A DNA stretch of 45,053 nucleotides from Escherichia phage vB_ecoS_OzMSK, in the sequence record PQ659294.1. One strand, given 5' to 3'. Shown piece by piece: positions 3,708 through 32,312 of this stretch. Positions within the stretch are counted from its first letter, which is position 1. Every line of letters begins with the position of its first letter. The position numbers and the translations under genes are program-made. The notes beneath the pieces are model-generated. The model was not told the DNA's origin. It did no database searches and saw only the letters and a program-made list of their open reading frames with translations.

Positions 3708-3785
3708 GCTCCGCTAGCTCAATTGGATAGCAGCAACGACCTTCTAAGTCGTAGGTTACTGGTTCGAGGCCAGTGCGGAGCGCCA
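3708..3785 (+). tRNA. tRNA-Arg, anticodon UCU, with encoded CCA
   Basis: Hand-folded cloverleaf: acceptor GCTCCGC/GCGGAGC (7 bp), U8, A14, GG in D-loop, anticodon stem ACGAC/GTCGT with loop CTTCTAA, 5-nt variable loop, T-stem ACTGG/CCAGT with loop TTCGAGG, discriminator G, CCA. Confidence 0.7.
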
Positions 3786-20323: not shown

Positions 20324-20375
20324 TATTTAGTGTAGAATGGCACAAATGATCAAAACAAACATGAGGCTTTGTGAT

Positions 20376-23300
20376 ATGGCTGAAGATATTAAGATTTATG
20401 GTGCTAAAGGCGGCAGCCAGAAGCAGCATCAACCAGTGGAGCAGGAAGACAACCTGATTTCATTAAACAAGGTCAAGGTATTACTTGCGGTTGCTGACGG
20501 CGAGGTTGACCCTAACTTCTCAATGAAAGATTTATACCTTGCTGACGTTCCGGTGCAAAACCAGGATGGTAGCTACAATTATGAGGGTGTTCGCGCTGAG
20601 TTCCGTGCTGGCACGCAGTATCAGGACTATATCGCCGGGCTTGACGGTGCTAACTCAGAGATTCAGGCATCCAGAGAAATCAAGAACGATACCCCGTACA
20701 TCATTGCGGTTAACAATACTCAGCTTTCAGCAATTCGAGTTAAGCTATTCTGGCCTCGACTGGTCAAGCAAGAGAGCAACGGTGACCTGAACGGAACTAC
20801 ATGTGAGTATGCAATTGATCTTTCTGTTAATGGTGGCGCTTATCAGGAATATACTCGCGGAGTTGCTAACGGCAAGACCACTACAGGTTACGACCGCAGC
20901 ATTCGCGTGAACCTTCCGGCTGAATTTGATAGCGCACTGGTTCGCATCCGTAAGATCACACCAGACTCAACAAGTAGCACCCTGGTTAACGGAATGCAGA
21001 TAACAACCTATCAGGAGGTAATCGACGCTAAATTCCGCTATCCGCTTACAGCCCTGGTTTATGTTGAGTTCGGCTCTGACCTTTTCCCTAACGGGATTCC
21101 AACAATCTCAATCAAGAAGAGATGGAAGCTGATTCAGGTCCCAACTAACTACGACCCTGAAACCAGAACTTACAGCGGGACATGGAATGGCCTATTCAAA
21201 ATGGCATGGTCAAACAACCCAGCGTGGGTTCTGTATGACTTAGTGACAAACCGCCGCTACGGTCTTGATCAGCGAGAGTTGGGTGTAGAGATTGATAAGT
21301 GGGGCCTGTATGAAGCCGCGCAATTCTGTGACCAGATGGTTCCTGATGGTAAGGGTGGAATGGAGCCGCGCTACCTGTGCGACATGGTTGTACAGAATAA
21401 AGTTGAGGCTTACACGCTAATTCGTGACATCTGCTCAATCTTCCGTGGCCTGACTTTCTATGACGGCGAAAAGATTGGTATTGTGGTTGATAAGCCACGC
21501 AACCCATCATACATCTTCACGAATGATAACGTTGTTAATGGATTGTTCAGCCGCACATTTGCCAGTGATAAGAGCCTTTACACCACTGCAAACGTTCAGT
21601 TTGATGATGTTGAGAACAACTATCAGCAAGATGTTGAGCCTGTTTTTGAGCTCGAGGCCACTCGCCGATTCGGCTTCAATCCAGTCGACCTTACGGCAAT
21701 CGGCTGCACTCGAAGAAGTGAAGCAAACAGACGCGGCAGATGGCTCCTAAAAACCAATCTGAGAAGCGAAACTATCAGCTTCACCACTGGGTTGGAGGGC
21801 ATGATTCCGATGATTGGCGAGGTGATTGCGGTCAATGATGCTGCATGGTCTAGCAACTATCAGCTAAACCTTTCCGGTCGTATTGAATCAGTTCAGGGGT
21901 TGCAGGTTTTTACCCCGTTTAAAGTTGACGCAGCGCCAGGTGACAGAATTCTTCTGAACAAACCCGACGGAAGCCCTGAAGCAAGAACTATTGCCAGCAT
22001 TTCGGAAGACGGTAGAACCATCAACCTGAACACGGCGTTCAGCTTTGTAGCTCAGCCTGATACTGTGTTCGCAATTGATAAGGATAATCTGGCACTTCAG
22101 CAATATGTTGTGACCGGTATTCAAAAAGCAGATACTGATGGTAAGGACTCATTCCAGTATACGATTACTGCGGTAGAGTACGACCCTAACAAGTATGACG
22201 AGATCGACTACGGCGTTAACATTGCTGACCGCCCGACTTCAATTGTAGAGCCTGACAGATTATCGCCACCAGAAAACCTGACGGTATCAAGCTACAGTAA
22301 GGTTGTTCAGGGTTTATCAGTTGAGACGATGGTTATCGGATGGGATAAGGCTCCATACGCAAAAACCTACAATGTTCAGTGGAGGAAAGAGAATGGCAAC
22401 TGGATTAACGTACCAAGAACAGCTAGTACAGAGGTTGATATCGAAGGTATTTACGCAGGAATCTATGACGTTAGGGTTCGCAGCGTATCAGATACTGAAA
22501 ACGTGTCTGCCTGGTCTGATATTGTAACGGTATCGCTAACTGGCAAGATTGGTCGCCCATCTGCGCCTACGGTTATCACGGCGTCAACTGATGAGGTATT
22601 TGGCATCCGTGTTAAATGGGGATTCCCTGATGGCTCTGGTGATACTGCTTACACTGAGCTTCAGCAGGTTCCTGATAATGGCGATGGTACTTACAATCCT
22701 GATAACGCAAGCTTGCTGACGTTGCTGCCTTATCCAGCCTATGAATACTGGCATACTCCTATTCAGCCAGGTAAGGTTATCTGGTATCGCGCAAGATTGA
22801 TTGACAGAATAGGTAATACGTCTGATTGGTCTAGTTTCGCAAGAGGCATGAGTACTGACGACGAAAACATTATCAATGATTACATCAAAGTTGATATTGA
22901 AGGCTCAGAAGGATTCAAATACCTCGAGCAGAATGCGATTCAAAAGAATCAGGACATTCAGAACCAGGCAGAATCAATTCTTGAGAACGCATTAGCTAAT
23001 GACACTGATGTTCGTCGCATGACTAAGGAGAACGGCAAACGTAAGGCTGAATATGTTCAGGCTGTTAATCTCATAGCCGATGAGACTCAGGCGCGTGTAG
23101 AGGCTCTCACAGCTCTTAAAGCGCAGATAGATGATGAAGTTGTAGCATCGATTACAGAAGTTCAGACAGCGCTAGCCACCGAGACAGAAGCAAGGACTAC
23201 TGCAGACACGGCTCTATCAGCAAGATTGGGTGATAACGAGGCGGCACTAAACCAGAAACTGGATGCTTTCTCTAATGCCACATCCACTGGTGTGCAGTAC

Positions 23301-23762
23301 GGAATTAGTCTTGGCCTTAAATACAATGGACAGACTTATTCATCCGGCATGAGTATGGAGCTTGTTGGCACTGGTGGTAATGTTCGCAGTCAGTTCATCT
23401 TTGACGCAAACAGATTCGCAATCAGTAATGGTATTGGTTCTGGCTCCGGTCAATGGCAGCTCCCCTTCGTTGTCGAGAACGGAAACGTAATGATCCAAAG
23501 CGCAGTAATCGGAGATGGCTCAATTACTAACGCGAAGATTGGTAACAGGATTCAATCTAACAGCTACGTTCCTGGCTCTCAAGGATGGGCGATTGACAAG
23601 TCAGGAAGTGCGGAATTTAGTAACGCCACTGTAATGGGTAACCTGTATGCCAATAATGGTAACTTCGCATTTAACGGAACCAATAACACGGTTCAGATTA
23701 ACAATAACGGAATCACTGTAAACTTACCGAACGGAGGAAGAGTGGTAGTTGGAGTGTGGTAA
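20376..23762 (+). CDS. tail tip / central fibre protein (lambda J-like host specificity protein)
   Basis: ~1128 aa; N-terminal region aligns by eye with lambda J; ATG 20376 chosen over 20337 because of GAGG RBS and J-like N-terminus. Confidence 0.85.
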   Translation: MAEDIKIYGAKGGSQKQHQPVEQEDNLISLNKVKVLLAVADGEVDPNFSMKDLYLADVPVQNQDGSYNYEGVRAEFRAGTQYQDYIAGLDGANSEIQASREIKNDTPYIIAVNNTQLSAIRVKLFWPRLVKQESNGDLNGTTCEYAIDLSVNGGAYQEYTRGVANGKTTTGYDRSIRVNLPAEFDSALVRIRKITPDSTSSTLVNGMQITTYQEVIDAKFRYPLTALVYVEFGSDLFPNGIPTISIKKRWKLIQVPTNYDPETRTYSGTWNGLFKMAWSNNPAWVLYDLVTNRRYGLDQRELGVEIDKWGLYEAAQFCDQMVPDGKGGMEPRYLCDMVVQNKVEAYTLIRDICSIFRGLTFYDGEKIGIVVDKPRNPSYIFTNDNVVNGLFSRTFASDKSLYTTANVQFDDVENNYQQDVEPVFELEATRRFGFNPVDLTAIGCTRRSEANRRGRWLLKTNLRSETISFTTGLEGMIPMIGEVIAVNDAAWSSNYQLNLSGRIESVQGLQVFTPFKVDAAPGDRILLNKPDGSPEARTIASISEDGRTINLNTAFSFVAQPDTVFAIDKDNLALQQYVVTGIQKADTDGKDSFQYTITAVEYDPNKYDEIDYGVNIADRPTSIVEPDRLSPPENLTVSSYSKVVQGLSVETMVIGWDKAPYAKTYNVQWRKENGNWINVPRTASTEVDIEGIYAGIYDVRVRSVSDTENVSAWSDIVTVSLTGKIGRPSAPTVITASTDEVFGIRVKWGFPDGSGDTAYTELQQVPDNGDGTYNPDNASLLTLLPYPAYEYWHTPIQPGKVIWYRARLIDRIGNTSDWSSFARGMSTDDENIINDYIKVDIEGSEGFKYLEQNAIQKNQDIQNQAESILENALANDTDVRRMTKENGKRKAEYVQAVNLIADETQARVEALTALKAQIDDEVVASITEVQTALATETEARTTADTALSARLGDNEAALNQKLDAFSNATSTGVQYGISLGLKYNGQTYSSGMSMELVGTGGNVRSQFIFDANRFAISNGIGSGSGQWQLPFVVENGNVMIQSAVIGDGSITNAKIGNRIQSNSYVPGSQGWAIDKSGSAEFSNATVMGNLYANNGNFAFNGTNNTVQINNNGITVNLPNGGRVVVGVW

Positions 23763-23767
23763 TAAAT

Positions 23768-23795
23768 AAAGCCCCTTAATTGGGGCTTTTCTTTT
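23768..23795. terminator. bidirectional terminator between J (plus) and the RBP candidate (minus)
   Basis: AAAGCCCCTTAATTGGGGCTTTT flanked by A-run and T-run. Confidence 0.65.
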
Positions 23796-24765
23796 AGTAG
23801 AAGTTTGGAATGAATGGAAGTTCCATTGATATGTTCGTGTCGAAAGGAAACCGAGCGCCTGATTGCGTCGAGTAGTTACCAATTACAGAGCCAGGAACAG
23901 CCCTAACAGAGCCTCCAGACATGCAGACCCCCTTGTACCTTAAGTTGTTATAACCTCCAGTAACTCTAGTCGTAGCGCCGCATCTAAGCAGCGGGAAGAA
24001 TCCACCATTTATTGACTGGTATCCATTATTGATCTGAATGAATCCACCAAGAACAAATGGGCGGCGAACACTTGAAAAAACAATCTGACCAGAACTATTC
24101 GACATTGTTAGTCCTGGTCCGGCTGGTGGGGGTTCATTTCTGAATATCACCAACTGAACATAAGTACTTGCCGCAATATCATCTGTACCTCCGTAGGTTA
24201 TATCCCTACACCATATTGTTGATCCATCTGATTCAAGTGATACGTTTGGATTATCCCACTTGCCGAATGGTATGCCGCTAACTGGTAGCGATGCCGCCCT
24301 GTTAACCTGTATTCCTCCAACCCATGCTGCTGACATTAGTCTAGAGTTGCTTGATATAGCAAGGAAATCAGTTGAGTTTTCAACGAGTATCCCTGGGCTT
24401 GATGAAGATGATGCTGGTAGAATTTCAAAGCAATTCCCAGCAAAGTCAATTATTCGACCTTTAGCACCATTGAAGTTGCTGAGCGTTATCCTACCAGTGC
24501 CGTCATTTACCTTTTGAAACCCGTTCATGTAATAAACTTCGGGTATAACATCATAAGCGTCAACGTGGACTGCCTTCGTTGGTATGCAGAAAGCCGTAGA
24601 ACCGGGGGACATTGTCAATCCAAAATCCCACGAACTTGCTGGGGTTGAAAGTCCATTGGTATTTATTGATCCAGTCACAGCAGGCGCCCTTAATCCTGCC
24701 GTTATTTCCATCGCTGGTCTTCCGTCATTGAGGTCAATCAATATACCCTGCGGCATTATTTCCAC
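23794..24765 (-). CDS. putative receptor-binding protein (323 aa)
   Basis: Gly/Ser/Asn/Thr-rich beta-type composition; convergent with J and co-transcribed downstream of a lipoprotein gene. Confidence 0.4.
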
Positions 24766-28377: not shown

Positions 28378-28812
28378 ATGCACGTAATTACCGGTCAGAT
28401 TCGCCGCGCTCCGTTCACCAAAGAAGGTCAAAACGCCAATGGTAACTGGAAGATGTTTGCGGTTGATTTGAGTGAGAGATACAAGGATAAAGATGGTCAA
28501 ACTCAGTACACAAACTACCGCGCAGTACTTTTCGCCAAAGAGTCGATGCTGGATTGGTATAACGAAGCATTTCAGGAAGGTAAAGTTGTCAGCCTAAGCG
28601 CCGAGAGTTTGTCGGTTGATGTTCGCGATAAAGATGGCAAGACTTACGTTACAGTTAATATGAATAATCCTCGACTGGAATTTAGTCAGCGAGGTGATTC
28701 AGCGACACAACAGCAGATGCAAAACCAACAGCGTCAGCAACAGAAGCAGCAGCAACAACAGCGACAACAGCCACAACAGCAAAGTCAATTTGACGACGAC
28801 ATTCCTTTTTGA
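28378..28812 (+). CDS. ssb: single-stranded DNA-binding protein
   Basis: OB-fold-like N-terminal region, Gln-rich linker and acidic C-terminal tip DDDIPF typical of bacterial-type SSBs. Confidence 0.8.
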   Translation: MHVITGQIRRAPFTKEGQNANGNWKMFAVDLSERYKDKDGQTQYTNYRAVLFAKESMLDWYNEAFQEGKVVSLSAESLSVDVRDKDGKTYVTVNMNNPRLEFSQRGDSATQQQMQNQQRQQQKQQQQQRQQPQQQSQFDDDIPF

Positions 28813-28823
28813 TGTAAAATATA

Positions 28824-28846
28824 AAGCCCCTTTCGGGGCTTTTTTA
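28824..28846. terminator. bidirectional terminator (AAAGCCCCTTTCGGGGCTTTTTT)
   Basis: GC hairpin flanked by A-run and T-run, between convergent ssb and tail fibre genes. Confidence 0.7.
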
Positions 28847-28847
28847 T

Positions 28848-31298
28848 TTAATAAATATTTACATCTGGAGAAATTCCAACGCAAGTCCAGCGCGAGAACT
28901 TGGCATCATAAACGAATGACATTCCAATTTGTCTCCCCTCAGATGGAGTTGTGAATGAGCCAACTCTAAACTTATTGCTAAATGAAACGGATGGACGCCG
29001 GCCGCCTGAAAGGTTGTAAATTATGAAGTCTATCCTCTGTGCATCTCTTGCGTTATCCTGAACATCAATAACTACAGGACTTGAATCAATTACAACGGTT
29101 GCAAGACTTGTTCTTAGTGGGTTAAATAGAATACTACCACCAGATAGCTGAACCCTTTTTTGAACGGGGTTAGAAGAATCCGTGTACAACCCTGTGTTTA
29201 TATTATACAAAGCCTCCCATGAATTCAGTTTTGAGTCATCAATCACTGTTGCATGCTGCCCAAATAGTATAGTCCCTTCTACATGGTTTCCTGAAGCTCC
29301 ATTATAAAAATCAAAACCAGAAGCTGATCCACCAACAAACCTATTAGCTCTAGCTCCGTTAACTTGAATTGATGGAGACTGAAAACCTGACTTCAGGCCA
29401 TTGAACAAGTTTCCTGTCGCCGTCTTCCTAAGAACGACGTCACCACCAGAGTTGACCTCAAGGTCGCAACCAATAACAGTGTTAGTTACTGCTGTTATGC
29501 CTAGGTCTGACTCATGACCGAAAGAAAACCCATACTTATTTCCCTCGCTGGTTCCACCAATAAATGTCGTATTACTGCAGAATGTAGCCTCAATTCCTGA
29601 TTCTGTTACATGCTCGCAAGTTGGGTTAATAAAAAGATCTGCAGATGTGCCGCGGAAGTTCACAGCGCCAGCCTCTGCGTCAATTAATATGCCGTACGTA
29701 GGCGTCGTTGTGAAGGTCTCAACGTTACCAGAGCACACAAAGTTATTATGCACGCATAGCTGAGTCCACCAGCAGTGTAAACCAGCCCTTCTAATGTTCG
29801 TAGCCATTAGGTTGTCAAAGCATGATGATATGACACCCCTTAATGAAAAGCCATCACTAGCATACCCATTCCCATCGACAATGATGTTGCTCATATATGA
29901 GTTGTATGCCCAATAATCTAGGTTTACATCCCTATGATCCATTTGGATGACGTAATCATGAGGTCCGCTAGTTAGTGAGATTCTTGCGCCTTTCTCACCG
30001 ATAATTGTTGCTGGCCTCAGAAAGTTTAATGGCTGAGATGTAAGATAATTACCTTTAGGAATATGTATAGCAATAGCGTTGTTTCTAGATGCCTCAACAG
30101 CGGCAAGCAATGCCTGAGTATCATCTGTTACACCATCACCAACAGCGCCAAAGTCCTTCTTAATATCGACATGAGTAAGTAAAGCGTTTACCTCTGGCTT
30201 TGAGTAAACATCAAGATTTGTTCTTGCTGCTGACTTATTTGCAACATCAGAGAAATTCAATGATTTTTGAAAAGTCTCATTTTTTGAATAAACATCAAGA
30301 TTTGTTCTTGCTTCTGACTTATTTGCAACATCAGAGAAATTCAATGATTTTTGAAAAGTCTCATTTTTTGAATAAACATCAAGTAAGTTTCTAGCCCTCG
30401 ATGCCGTAGCTCCACCTCCGGACTTGCCAGCCTCAACCATCACCATTTCCCTACCTGGTGCATAAACCCTGCTTCCGGGCGCTCCCACAAACTGAATGTA
30501 AATCTCCCTGCTATACTGGTTGCTTGTTGAAGATTGGCCTACAACTCGCAAGGAGTGCGTGGTTGTATTGCTTGACTTTGATATTACCTGAATGCATAAA
30601 GCAGCAATTGATGTTCCAAATGTTGAGATTATGTCATTTGGAGCATTTATCATTGATGAAACGTTAACCATATAAAGGCCACCGGATTTAAAAACAAATT
30701 CCTGCCAATCAAAATTGCTTATCAATGGCGTAGTGTCTGTCGCCAATCCATATCCGGCAAGAGTTACCAACGTTCCGGCATCCCCGGCGTTATTAATTGC
30801 TTTAATCGTCTGATCTCTTGCTGCAGTGGTCGTGTCTCTTGCACTAATAGCAGTAGCGGCGCTCTCTTCGGCAGCAATCTGGCTAGCAAGAGCCTCAGCA
30901 GCTCCAGTGGTGGATTGTTTTGCAAGCTGCTCGAAGAGAGGCCAGTCGAAAGTGTCTTGACCAATAAATTGCAACAATCCTTCGATTGATGTCTCCTTTG
31001 ACTGGTAGTAACGCAAAGTCTCTGCTACATCCTGAGCCAACCCCTGAACGGTAATTCCATCGTGCGCAAGAATTGCATAACCAGTTCCGGAAGGAACAGT
31101 TTCAGAGTTAGGGTTGTAAACATTAATCTGAGTATCGCTGATGATTTCAGAGATGGTATAAATCTTCAGGGGGCTGGTTTTAAAAATAATGGTTGCACCT
31201 ACGCGAATAAGTGTAAGCGGTGCTTTCCATGTTGTACCCACGCCAGTTACCTCGCCATTTGCGGCCAGCGACGCTGTTCCTAAGTCATAAATTGCCAT
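28848..31298 (-). CDS. lateral tail fibre / tailspike with right-handed beta-helix (pectate-lyase-like) domain
   Basis: 816 aa from ATG 31298 (GGAG RBS); motif DIKKDFGAVGDGVTDDTQAL typical of pectate-lyase-type tailspikes; internal 28-aa tandem repeats. Confidence 0.75.
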   Translation of the reverse strand: MAIYDLGTASLAANGEVTGVGTTWKAPLTLIRVGATIIFKTSPLKIYTISEIISDTQINVYNPNSETVPSGTGYAILAHDGITVQGLAQDVAETLRYYQSKETSIEGLLQFIGQDTFDWPLFEQLAKQSTTGAAEALASQIAAEESAATAISARDTTTAARDQTIKAINNAGDAGTLVTLAGYGLATDTTPLISNFDWQEFVFKSGGLYMVNVSSMINAPNDIISTFGTSIAALCIQVISKSSNTTTHSLRVVGQSSTSNQYSREIYIQFVGAPGSRVYAPGREMVMVEAGKSGGGATASRARNLLDVYSKNETFQKSLNFSDVANKSEARTNLDVYSKNETFQKSLNFSDVANKSAARTNLDVYSKPEVNALLTHVDIKKDFGAVGDGVTDDTQALLAAVEASRNNAIAIHIPKGNYLTSQPLNFLRPATIIGEKGARISLTSGPHDYVIQMDHRDVNLDYWAYNSYMSNIIVDGNGYASDGFSLRGVISSCFDNLMATNIRRAGLHCWWTQLCVHNNFVCSGNVETFTTTPTYGILIDAEAGAVNFRGTSADLFINPTCEHVTESGIEATFCSNTTFIGGTSEGNKYGFSFGHESDLGITAVTNTVIGCDLEVNSGGDVVLRKTATGNLFNGLKSGFQSPSIQVNGARANRFVGGSASGFDFYNGASGNHVEGTILFGQHATVIDDSKLNSWEALYNINTGLYTDSSNPVQKRVQLSGGSILFNPLRTSLATVVIDSSPVVIDVQDNARDAQRIDFIIYNLSGGRRPSVSFSNKFRVGSFTTPSEGRQIGMSFVYDAKFSRWTCVGISPDVNIY
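30199..30385. repeat. 84-bp direct tandem repeat (two copies plus a partial third) inside the tail fibre gene
   Basis: AAACATCAAG recurs at 30206, 30290 and 30374; copies differ at about one position; encodes ARTNLDVYSKNETFQKSLNFSDVANKSE twice. Confidence 0.85.
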
Positions 31299-31318
31299 TG
31301 TGTAAATTCTCCATTTGT

Positions 31319-31338
31319 AAAATAGCACGAATTGCTAA
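31319..31338 (+). promoter_or_regulatory. class-A motif copy in plus orientation, 21 nt upstream of the minus-strand tail fibre start
   Basis: AAATAGCACGAATTGCTAAG; the only copy oriented against the adjacent downstream gene. Confidence 0.4.
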
Positions 31339-31363
31339 GTTGGATTGTAGCATCTTTCAGGCA

Positions 31364-31386
31364 TAAAAAAACCTCCCAAAGGAGGT
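31364..31386 (-). terminator. rho-independent terminator for the primase transcript
   Basis: Minus strand reads AACCTCCTTTGGGAGGTTTTTTT. Confidence 0.65.
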
Positions 31387-32312
31387 TAGTCTATTAATTC
31401 GCTTGCTTTGTATATTCGCTTTCTTATGCCAGACTTGAAAAAATTATCATCATTTGGCATTACAACATCAAGATTGCGATCATCAGCAACGGCAAGTAAA
31501 TCAAAAGAGTGGCGAGTACAAGCGACGCGTAACTTGTAGTTTCTAAGCGCATAAGCAACCATTTCCATGTTGTAGCTGGAGTGGCAAACAAGCACGCAGC
31601 GGTTGCCACTAGCAAGATGAACGCGAACACCATCAATCCAATTATCGACCAGATAAGCGTACTCACTATCCTTAAAGGCACCAATAACAGCCACAGATTG
31701 GCGAGTATAATCTTTTGCAGCATAACTAACATCTCCCTCTTCATTTATAAAAATTACATTGCACATCTCATCTGACACGCCGTCACTATAAGCCATAAAG
31801 CACGGCACTGCGTGTATTAGTTCACCAGATTTAGCCCTACCAACATCAAAGCCGAACTCGCTATAGATACCCTCGTATATACTGAGTGGAGTTGATTCTA
31901 CTCTTTCCGTCCTTCCCATTATCTCTAAGCATCTTTCGTGGTCAATCTGAGCGCCCATTTTGTATGGTGATGTTCTTGAAGCTCTTTTGTTTGCTTTTGA
32001 TATAACCTCTACTGGAACTAGATTCAGCCAATCACCAAGCGTATCTATTGTTTCACTATAACTCATTCCGGAACACTTCATTACCCAACCAACACCAGAA
32101 TCATTTCCGCACTGGTTGCATATTGCTGCGCCATTTCCCTTTTCCTGACCTAACTCATCAGTGAAGCGAAACCTATCCCTTCCAAAGCAGTAAGGGCACG
32201 GACCATGTTTCTTGCTGAGATTCTCCTTTGTCCATCCAAGGTGCGATGAGTAGAAATCACTCCACATTCCCTTCATTTTTGCTATCACTTCGTTCTTATC
32301 ATGGTGACTCAT
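31386..32312 (-). CDS. DNA primase (zinc-binding)
   Basis: Cys-rich N-terminal segment CPYC...CNQC (GPCPYCFGRDRF...AICNQCGN); ATG 32312 with GGAGG RBS. Confidence 0.65.
   Translation of the reverse strand: MSHHDKNEVIAKMKGMWSDFYSSHLGWTKENLSKKHGPCPYCFGRDRFRFTDELGQEKGNGAAICNQCGNDSGVGWVMKCSGMSYSETIDTLGDWLNLVPVEVISKANKRASRTSPYKMGAQIDHERCLEIMGRTERVESTPLSIYEGIYSEFGFDVGRAKSGELIHAVPCFMAYSDGVSDEMCNVIFINEEGDVSYAAKDYTRQSVAVIGAFKDSEYAYLVDNWIDGVRVHLASGNRCVLVCHSSYNMEMVAYALRNYKLRVACTRHSFDLLAVADDRNLDVVMPNDDNFFKSGIRKRIYKASELID

Follow-up and report, generated by a model that had tools for sequence, protein, structure and literature searches.

We propose, with good confidence in the explanation as a whole, that the lateral tail fibre of the Drexlerviridae phage Msk is built as an enzymatic tailspike, i.e., that it cleaves a glycan, arose by recombination within a linker and is dispensable on hosts that lack O-antigen. 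The window, i.e., the whole stretch of 45,053 nucleotides that we analyzed, is the Msk genome MW057918.1 rotated by 8,283 bp. The following features were assigned in and around the fibre gene.

28823..28842, both strands: hairpin resembling a terminator in both directions, where the ssb-like ORF and the fibre gene converge (terminator scan)
28848..31298 (-): lateral tail fibre/tailspike gene, 816 codons plus stop at 28848-28850 (ORF list, translation check)
28851..29159 (-): C-terminal β-sandwich domain, residues 714-816 (DSSP strands at fragment positions 334-429, pLDDT mostly 81-95)
29160..30167 (-): right-handed parallel β-helix, residues 378-713, with the PF12708 N-terminal cap motif DIKKDFGAVGDG followed by the rungs
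29439..29615 (-): carboxylate stack E562, E585 (GTSEG), D612, E614 and D620, candidate catalytic groove
30199..30386 (-): 28-aa linker unit LLDVYSKNETFQKSLNFSDVANKS(E/A)ART, residues 305-367, two full copies and a partial third
30429..30731 (-): small β-sandwich middle domain, residues ~190-290, common to P0061-type fibres
30753..31049 (-): helical segment, residues 84-182, equivalent of the helical-bundle 'head' in Webervirus depolymerases
31065..31298 (-): N-terminal β-rich virion-anchor domain, residues 1-78, conserved in all Drexlerviridae lateral fibres
31344..31352 (-): TGcTACAAT, resembling an extended -10 element, upstream of the fibre gene (found by inspecting the letters, unlisted by the consensus scan)
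31370..31387 (-): terminator-like hairpin with T-run, upstream of the fibre gene and overlapping the primase stop codon (terminator scan, sequence)

The fibre gene, its locus and its N-terminal half

The 816-residue minus-strand fibre described by the first-pass annotation is present. Its open reading frame spans 28848..31328(-), and we take the ATG at 31298 as the true start because homologues begin at the equivalent methionine and GGAG is found 10 nt upstream of this codon. On the same grounds, i.e., homologue starts and local sequence, the upstream GTG at 31328 was ruled out. The 2,451-bp gene region is 99.9% identical to that of Escherichia phage Msk (MW057918.1; Drexlerviridae, Braunvirinae; host E. 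coli C). The GenBank record MW057918.1 is marked 'UNVERIFIED' and carries no annotation. In the Msk paper the product, MSK_000019, was named just 'tail fiber protein' (PMC8421802), and the terms 'pectate', 'depolymerase', 'tailspike' and 'halo' never appear there. Virion proteins were assigned in that work by SDS-PAGE band size only, and this gene was confused with Rtp43 (PMC8421802). Given size matching and this mix-up, the band assignment is no proof of virion incorporation. Among the PHROG families, 24092 ('tail fiber') matches residues 1-334 and 18522 ('tail protein') residues 381-812 (E 2e-178).

On the plus strand, a PDDEXK exonuclease (DUF3799), an ERF recombinase and the SSB-like ORF converge on the fibre gene; upstream of it on the minus strand lie a zinc-ribbon primase, a Cro-like protein and then a helicase. 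The position between ssb and primase, far from the tail module, had been given correctly before. It is no oddity but a family hallmark, because the BASEL study found a lateral-fibre locus between conserved recombination and primase/helicase genes in all Drexlerviridae (PMC8594841), and a Drexlerviridae contig (L003) has the identical synteny of helicase, cro-like gene, primase, spike P0001, ssb, ERF and exonuclease. Moreover, only the 5' end of the main lateral-fibre gene is conserved in this family, the distal part being hypervariable (PMC8594841). The lateral fibres of E. coli Drexlerviridae, e.g., JeanPiccard, JulesPiccard and Rtp-like phages, share the locus, the conserved 5' end and the hypervariable distal part with Msk. 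With a hairpin on either side and the -10-like element, which may be its own promoter, the fibre gene looks like a separate transcription unit, these signals being pattern matches.

The N-terminus had been described as anchor-like, and it is indeed the conserved Drexlerviridae anchor (residues 1-78), modelled with a pLDDT of about 87-93 in most 10-residue blocks. The extreme N-terminus of about 100 aa, which is conserved in Drexlerviridae lateral fibres, is present in Msk: residues 1-105 are 91-92% identical to the BEK3 and ETEP102 fibres, and across 49 homologues 33 columns within residues 1-171 are invariant. Anchor and helical bundle (residues 1-182) are also homologous to the proven capsule depolymerases Depo32 (7VYV/7VZ3) and DpK2 (7LZJ) of Webervirus, i.e., KP36-like Drexlerviridae; these residues match the deposited chains with E 5e-35, and the anchor aligns with their residues 1-100. 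For Depo32, a trimer, depolymerase activity on K2 capsule is proven, and its anchor and helical bundle up to residue 185 are invisible in the cryo-EM map (PMC10581125). For this reason 7VYV was rejected as a structure of the Msk N-terminus, and no structure is available for this part of the protein.

We modelled residues 1-380 as a monomer, with a mediocre pLDDT of 69.4. DSSP assigned helices 84-99, 102-112, 119-171 and 174-182 at low monomer confidence, and the linker repeats were poorly defined; most blocks of the middle β-sandwich reached pLDDT 80-91. Foldseek returned no significant neighbour for this model. Its best matches, Bet v 1/START proteins at E 0.024, were treated as noise. Pfam showed neither the Kuttervirus TSP2 N-domain PF18668 nor the Peptidase_S74 chaperone PF13884 in the Msk protein, although the latter is present in P0061-type relatives sharing residues 1-334. 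Most Drexlerviridae relatives end in S74 (PF13884), PF25670, PF21882, GDPD or EEP domains, whereas a PF12708 β-helix is found in a minority that includes Msk.

The C-terminal β-helix and its candidate active site

The first-pass annotation had proposed a C-terminal pectate-lyase-like β-helix starting at 30150, which is right to within 17 nt: the β-helix motif begins at residue 378 (position 30167) and leaves 439 residues to the end of the protein. PF12708 (Pect-lyase_RHGA_epim) matches with 46.8 bits against a gathering cut-off of 27, its alignment at residues 381-455 covering the cap and first rungs only. NCBIfam gave sub-threshold matches to the cap motif only, far below the cut-offs. With a 49-sequence alignment as input, AlphaFold2 modelled residues 381-816 at a mean pLDDT of 94.3 and a pTM of 0.88. 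The model consists nearly entirely of β-strands, with one short N-terminal helix, a run of short strands and a β-sandwich from fragment position ~334 (full-length 714). With probability 1.0, Foldseek matched this model in the PDB to PfbA, to alginate epimerases and to the tailspikes of Sf6, HK620, AS12, CBA120 and Depo32. From the model and these matches we conclude that the domain is a right-handed β-helix. The C-terminal β-sandwich is co-conserved with the β-helix and kept in all full-length homologues; an autocleaving chaperone at residues 714-816 was hence ruled out, also because an S74 match was lacking. Msk has the modular build of tailspike depolymerases, i.e., a family-shared anchor and an exchangeable β-helix receptor-binding domain, and from its relatives Depo32, Sf6, P22 and CBA120 it is probably a homotrimer.

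'Pectate-lyase-like' is the name of a fold. At 10-18% identity and similar scores, the structural neighbours comprise hydrolases, lyases, epimerases and the non-catalytic adhesin PfbA, so that the fold alone gives no chemistry and a depolymerase activity can only be inferred. Across the 49 homologues, down to 22% identity, the columns G568, G582, T583, S584, E585, G590 and E614 (full-length numbering) are invariant (49/49), E562, D620, N606, N616 and N630 are conserved at ≥94%, and D612 at 86%. The carboxylates are spaced 23-29 residues apart, i.e., about one rung, and from this spacing and the secondary structure they would stack on one face of the helix. An invariant Lys, Arg, His or Tyr was not found among the 49 homologues, the best conserved basic residue being R439 (80%).

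The tailspike endoglycosidases of P22, Sf6 and HK620 use Glu/Asp catalytic pairs, and the active site of the Sf6 tailspike lies between subunits. Msk shares the fold of these P22- and Sf6-type tailspikes. In a profile search, the neck, cap and first rungs were homologous to the Sf6 endorhamnosidase (E 1.6e-19), but over the catalytic rungs no sequence similarity to Sf6 was detectable. Catalytic residues of Depo32 are likewise Glu/Asp (PMC10581125). Because of the conserved carboxylates resembling those of tailspike endoglycosidases, the lack of an invariant basic residue and the Sf6 profile homology, we favour, with moderate confidence, a glycoside hydrolase over a Ca2+/Arg pectate lyase. The features of a strict pectate lyase, i.e., a conserved Arg or Lys as catalytic base together with a Ca2+-binding Asp cluster, were not found in the alignment of 49 homologues.

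Two other chemistries have to be weighed against hydrolysis. The β-helix may be a mere adhesin that attaches to a surface glycan, or to some other structure, and leaves it intact, as PfbA does not catalyze a reaction and yet appears among the structural neighbours at equal Z. Two invariant Glu and three near-invariant carboxylates on successive rungs, retained in homologues down to 22% identity while other surface residues have diverged, fit a catalytic site better than a serotype-specific binding surface, and we regard pure binding as unlikely. Alternatively, the module may be a polysaccharide lyase acting by β-elimination on a capsule or O-antigen that contains uronic acid, which is what the label 'pectate lyase' would imply. 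Such an enzyme needs a Brønsted base, for which no invariant Lys, Arg, His or Tyr is at hand; the invariant residues are Glu, Asp and Asn, as in the P22, Sf6 and HK620 endoglycosidases, and the sequence homology, in neck and first rungs, is to the Sf6 endorhamnosidase. We hence consider a lyase quite unlikely and retain the hydrolase as the preferred reading.

Mosaic origin and relatives of the receptor-binding module

Over residues 1-334 the protein shows 97% identity to P0061, a Drexlerviridae fibre of 625 aa whose C-terminus is an S74 chaperone domain. Over residues 349-816 it shows 92% identity to P0001, a spike of 662 aa from a Drexlerviridae contig, in which the N-terminal part is shorter. 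The module boundaries are sharp in BLAST against the collected homologues, and the linker (residues 305-367) is the recombination junction of the N- and C-terminal modules. The motif LNFSDVA.K..AR.NL is found in both parental types. At the DNA level the linker is a tandem repeat of 84 bp × 2.2 with 98% matches (TRF), and a further homologue, P0026, is the same chimera minus one linker unit. The first-pass annotation had described a repeat-containing shaft; this holds for the 2.2 copies of the 28-aa linker, but there is no long repeat array, and the remainder consists of the helical segment and the small β-sandwich.

The fibre gene would hence have formed when a P0061-type fibre and a P0001-type tailspike recombined within the linker motif that they have in common, and in the simplest reading of the sequences this was followed by duplication through unequal crossover or slippage. 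About 60 records of Rtp-like phages share the linker DNA alone, at 80-98%, while their flanking sequences differ on both sides, and weaker matches to the linker peptide occur in fibres of Aeromonas, Vibrio and Klebsiella phages. A more speculative proposal has two branches, either that the LNFSDVA.K..AR.NLDVYSK linker serves Rtp-like phages as a 'cassette joint', conserved in nucleotides and peptide, for homologous recombination, plugging in receptor-binding modules of unrelated myo- and podoviruses, or that the module targets a glycan of rough strains; jointly, we rate these as rather improbable. If the cassette joint were real, Msk would have been caught just after the exchange, marked by its near-perfect 84-bp duplication.

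The 436-residue C-terminal module is, end to end, 62% identical in tblastn to tail spike protein 2 (TSP2) of the Kuttervirus phages PhiSH19, SPTD1, PM10, SE14, Chennai and others; for the spikes of three further E. coli phages, identity is 41-43%. The PhiSH19 TSP2 gene lies in a TSP1-TSP3 cluster and is annotated with a pectate lyase superfamily domain. Msk and TSP2 of the PhiSH19/SPTD1/PM10/SE14 subtype thus have the β-helix and the C-terminal domain in common. Their N-terminal halves differ: Msk has the Drexlerviridae anchor, helical bundle, sandwich and linker, whereas homologues related to TSP2 in the C-domain carry PF18668 of the branched myovirus complex. With 62% identity, the two may also recognise different glycans. 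The Webervirus depolymerases present the converse case. They share one design with Msk, i.e., a lateral spike with a β-helix of the enzyme type, but their β-helix domains are related to that of Msk at the fold level only (12-16% identity), and Depo32 has extra connection and CBM domains and targets Klebsiella capsule.

Six of the Kuttervirus phages have TSP2 receptor-binding regions that are conserved to about 99% (PMC9965104). CBA120 equipped with the TSP2 C-terminus of SPTD1 forms spots on Citrobacter sedlakii and no longer on E. coli O157, and SPTD1 without this C-terminus loses its Citrobacter activity (PMC9965104). The swap, which read out host specificity and not cleavage, is direct evidence that this module family is a determinant of host specificity. 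The earlier suggestion that the fibre determines host range is therefore supported by SPTD1 TSP2, the closest relative with a known function, whose 62%-identical module transfers specificity (PMC9965104), but it applies only to hosts with the cognate glycan.

C-module homologues are fused to varied anchors, i.e., the P22 head-binding domain PF09008, the Ackermannviridae TSP domain PF18668, the T7 fibre domain PF03906 and Drexlerviridae anchors. The module is also found in prophages of E. coli, Citrobacter and Salmonella, with bacterial prophage homologues at ≤47% identity, and PF09008 is the head-binding domain on such prophage homologues. In an exhaustive HMMER scan, with clusters formed at 50% identity, E≤1e-30 gave 51 clusters; the looser threshold of E≤1e-3 gave 1,078. 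The DNA of the module had no match in 5,426 complete E. coli genomes, and neither this search nor the prophage homologues yielded a substrate candidate. Together, the comparisons suggest that this receptor-binding module, of a tailspike family that phages of Salmonella, Citrobacter and E. coli share, circulates among sipho-, myo- and podoviruses.

Hosts and proposed role of the spike

In the mechanism that we propose, residues 1-~180, i.e., anchor and helical bundle, would attach the spike to the virion, and the small β-sandwich and the duplicated 28-aa linker would lead to the ~330-residue β-helix with its C-terminal β-sandwich. The β-helix would most likely bind one particular polysaccharide on the surface of enterobacteria, either an O-antigen or, less probably, a capsule, and most likely cleave it by acid/base hydrolysis in the groove lined by E562, E585, D612, E614 and D620. 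Cleavage would let the virion pass the glycan layer to a terminal outer-membrane receptor, which a separate tail-tip protein would recognise. For the lateral fibres of Drexlerviridae, O-antigen was suggested as a primary receptor that is not essential, and the terminal porin receptor is bound by a separate protein encoded beside gpJ (PMC8594841).

Msk came from an E. coli C culture that had lysed; it can be plated on DH5alpha, Rosetta and TOP10, whereas neither Salmonella nor Pseudomonas supports plating (PMC8421802). The substrate of the spike is probably absent from all known Msk hosts and the spike dispensable there. The reason is that E. coli C, DH5alpha, Rosetta and TOP10 are, to our knowledge, rough strains without O-antigen. 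By analogy with the family (PMC8594841), the terminal-receptor protein beside gpJ would decide infection on such hosts.

The opposite would hold if the spike targeted a glycan that rough laboratory strains also carry, e.g., ECA, colanic acid, PGA or LPS core, and were hence indispensable on E. coli C and K-12. The phage turned up as a laboratory contaminant, all of its known hosts are laboratory strains (PMC8421802), and some phage fibres do target ECA (PMC8594841); with such a target, the acquired module may aid the success of Msk as a contaminant. The shift of CBA120 from O157 to Citrobacter sedlakii by a 62%-identical module fits a variable antigen instead (PMC9965104). Also, the diversification of the module family into 51 clusters is as expected for serotype-specific receptors, and the N-terminal module is paired with many alternative C-domains in otherwise similar phages. 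We therefore regard a rough-strain glycan as very unlikely and prefer a polysaccharide that the known hosts lack.

Lateral tailspikes of the enzymatic type are a normal and well-known design, and Msk is no new kind of system; current understanding of phage host recognition is unchanged by its spike. The gain is in annotation, where the Msk paper has just 'tail fiber' and MW057918.1 nothing. The clean module boundaries and the shared linker offer a ready joint for receptor-binding-domain swaps on a T1-like chassis. Finally, the host range of Msk probably extends, so far hidden, to some enterobacterium that is smooth or encapsulated, which is relevant because the Msk paper proposes the phage for therapy (PMC8421802).

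Expression signals and neighbours of the fibre gene

The lateral tail fibre is encoded by a late-type structural gene amid replication genes. Pattern matching placed terminator-like hairpins on both sides of it, one accompanied by an extended −10-like element belonging to the gene itself:

28823–28842, terminator-like hairpin on one side
31344–31387, terminator-like hairpin and extended −10-like element on the other side
28378–28812, plus strand, neighbouring ORF called ssb
3708–3785, plus strand, tRNA-Arg, anticodon TCT

From their sequence, the flanking hairpins and the gene's own −10-like element suggest that the fibre gene is expressed with independent timing. The ORF called ssb had no Pfam match at E ≤ 0.001; its product ends in a Gln-rich tail and DDDIPF, an acidic tip of the kind that SSB proteins typically carry, and may be a divergent SSB. 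The tRNA-Arg was the only tRNA found, in agreement with the single tRNA-Arg (TCT) described for phage Msk (PMC8421802).

Differences from the Msk record

For MSK_000019, the 816-residue fibre product of Msk, the same description states a length of "816 a.a." alongside a mass of "~277 kDa" and treats the protein as equivalent to Rtp43. A mass of 277 kDa is impossible for a monomer of 816 residues, and we hence conclude that the published annotation of the fibre gene is unreliable.

Compared with the Msk sequence (MW057918.1), the window carries eight substitutions and a 1-nt difference:

28857, 29255 and 30313, substitutions in the fibre gene
23109, substitution in the gpJ-like tail-tip gene
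9746, 9749, 44826 and 44997, remaining substitutions
31365, 1-nt difference within the A/T run of the terminator

The fibre gene makes up 5% of the genome yet has three of the eight substitutions, all of which alter the protein (E329A, H682Y, N814K). Of the other five, one falls in the gpJ-like tail-tip gene. The pattern may represent variation clustered in host-recognition genes; alternatively, the differences may be sequencing noise or noise between record versions.

The region at 20337–24765 corresponds in position to the "bona fide RBP / Cor" locus, which the BASEL study of E. coli phages (PMC8594841) tied to terminal-receptor choice. It is ~88–92% identical to other Rtp-like phages, and the counterpart of its protein in a syntenic Drexlerviridae contig is paired with a phage lipoprotein.

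C-terminal partners of the Drexlerviridae anchor

Among the collected homologues sharing the fibre N-terminus (P0061–P0178), the Drexlerviridae anchor is fused to at least eight C-terminal domain types, i.e., S74 chaperone fibre tips, PF25670, PF21882, PF27114, the β-helices PF12708 and PF13229, GDPD phosphodiesterase (PF03009) and EEP nuclease/phosphatase (PF03372). Phosphodiesterase-type tips are unusual, and might target phosphodiester-linked glycans.
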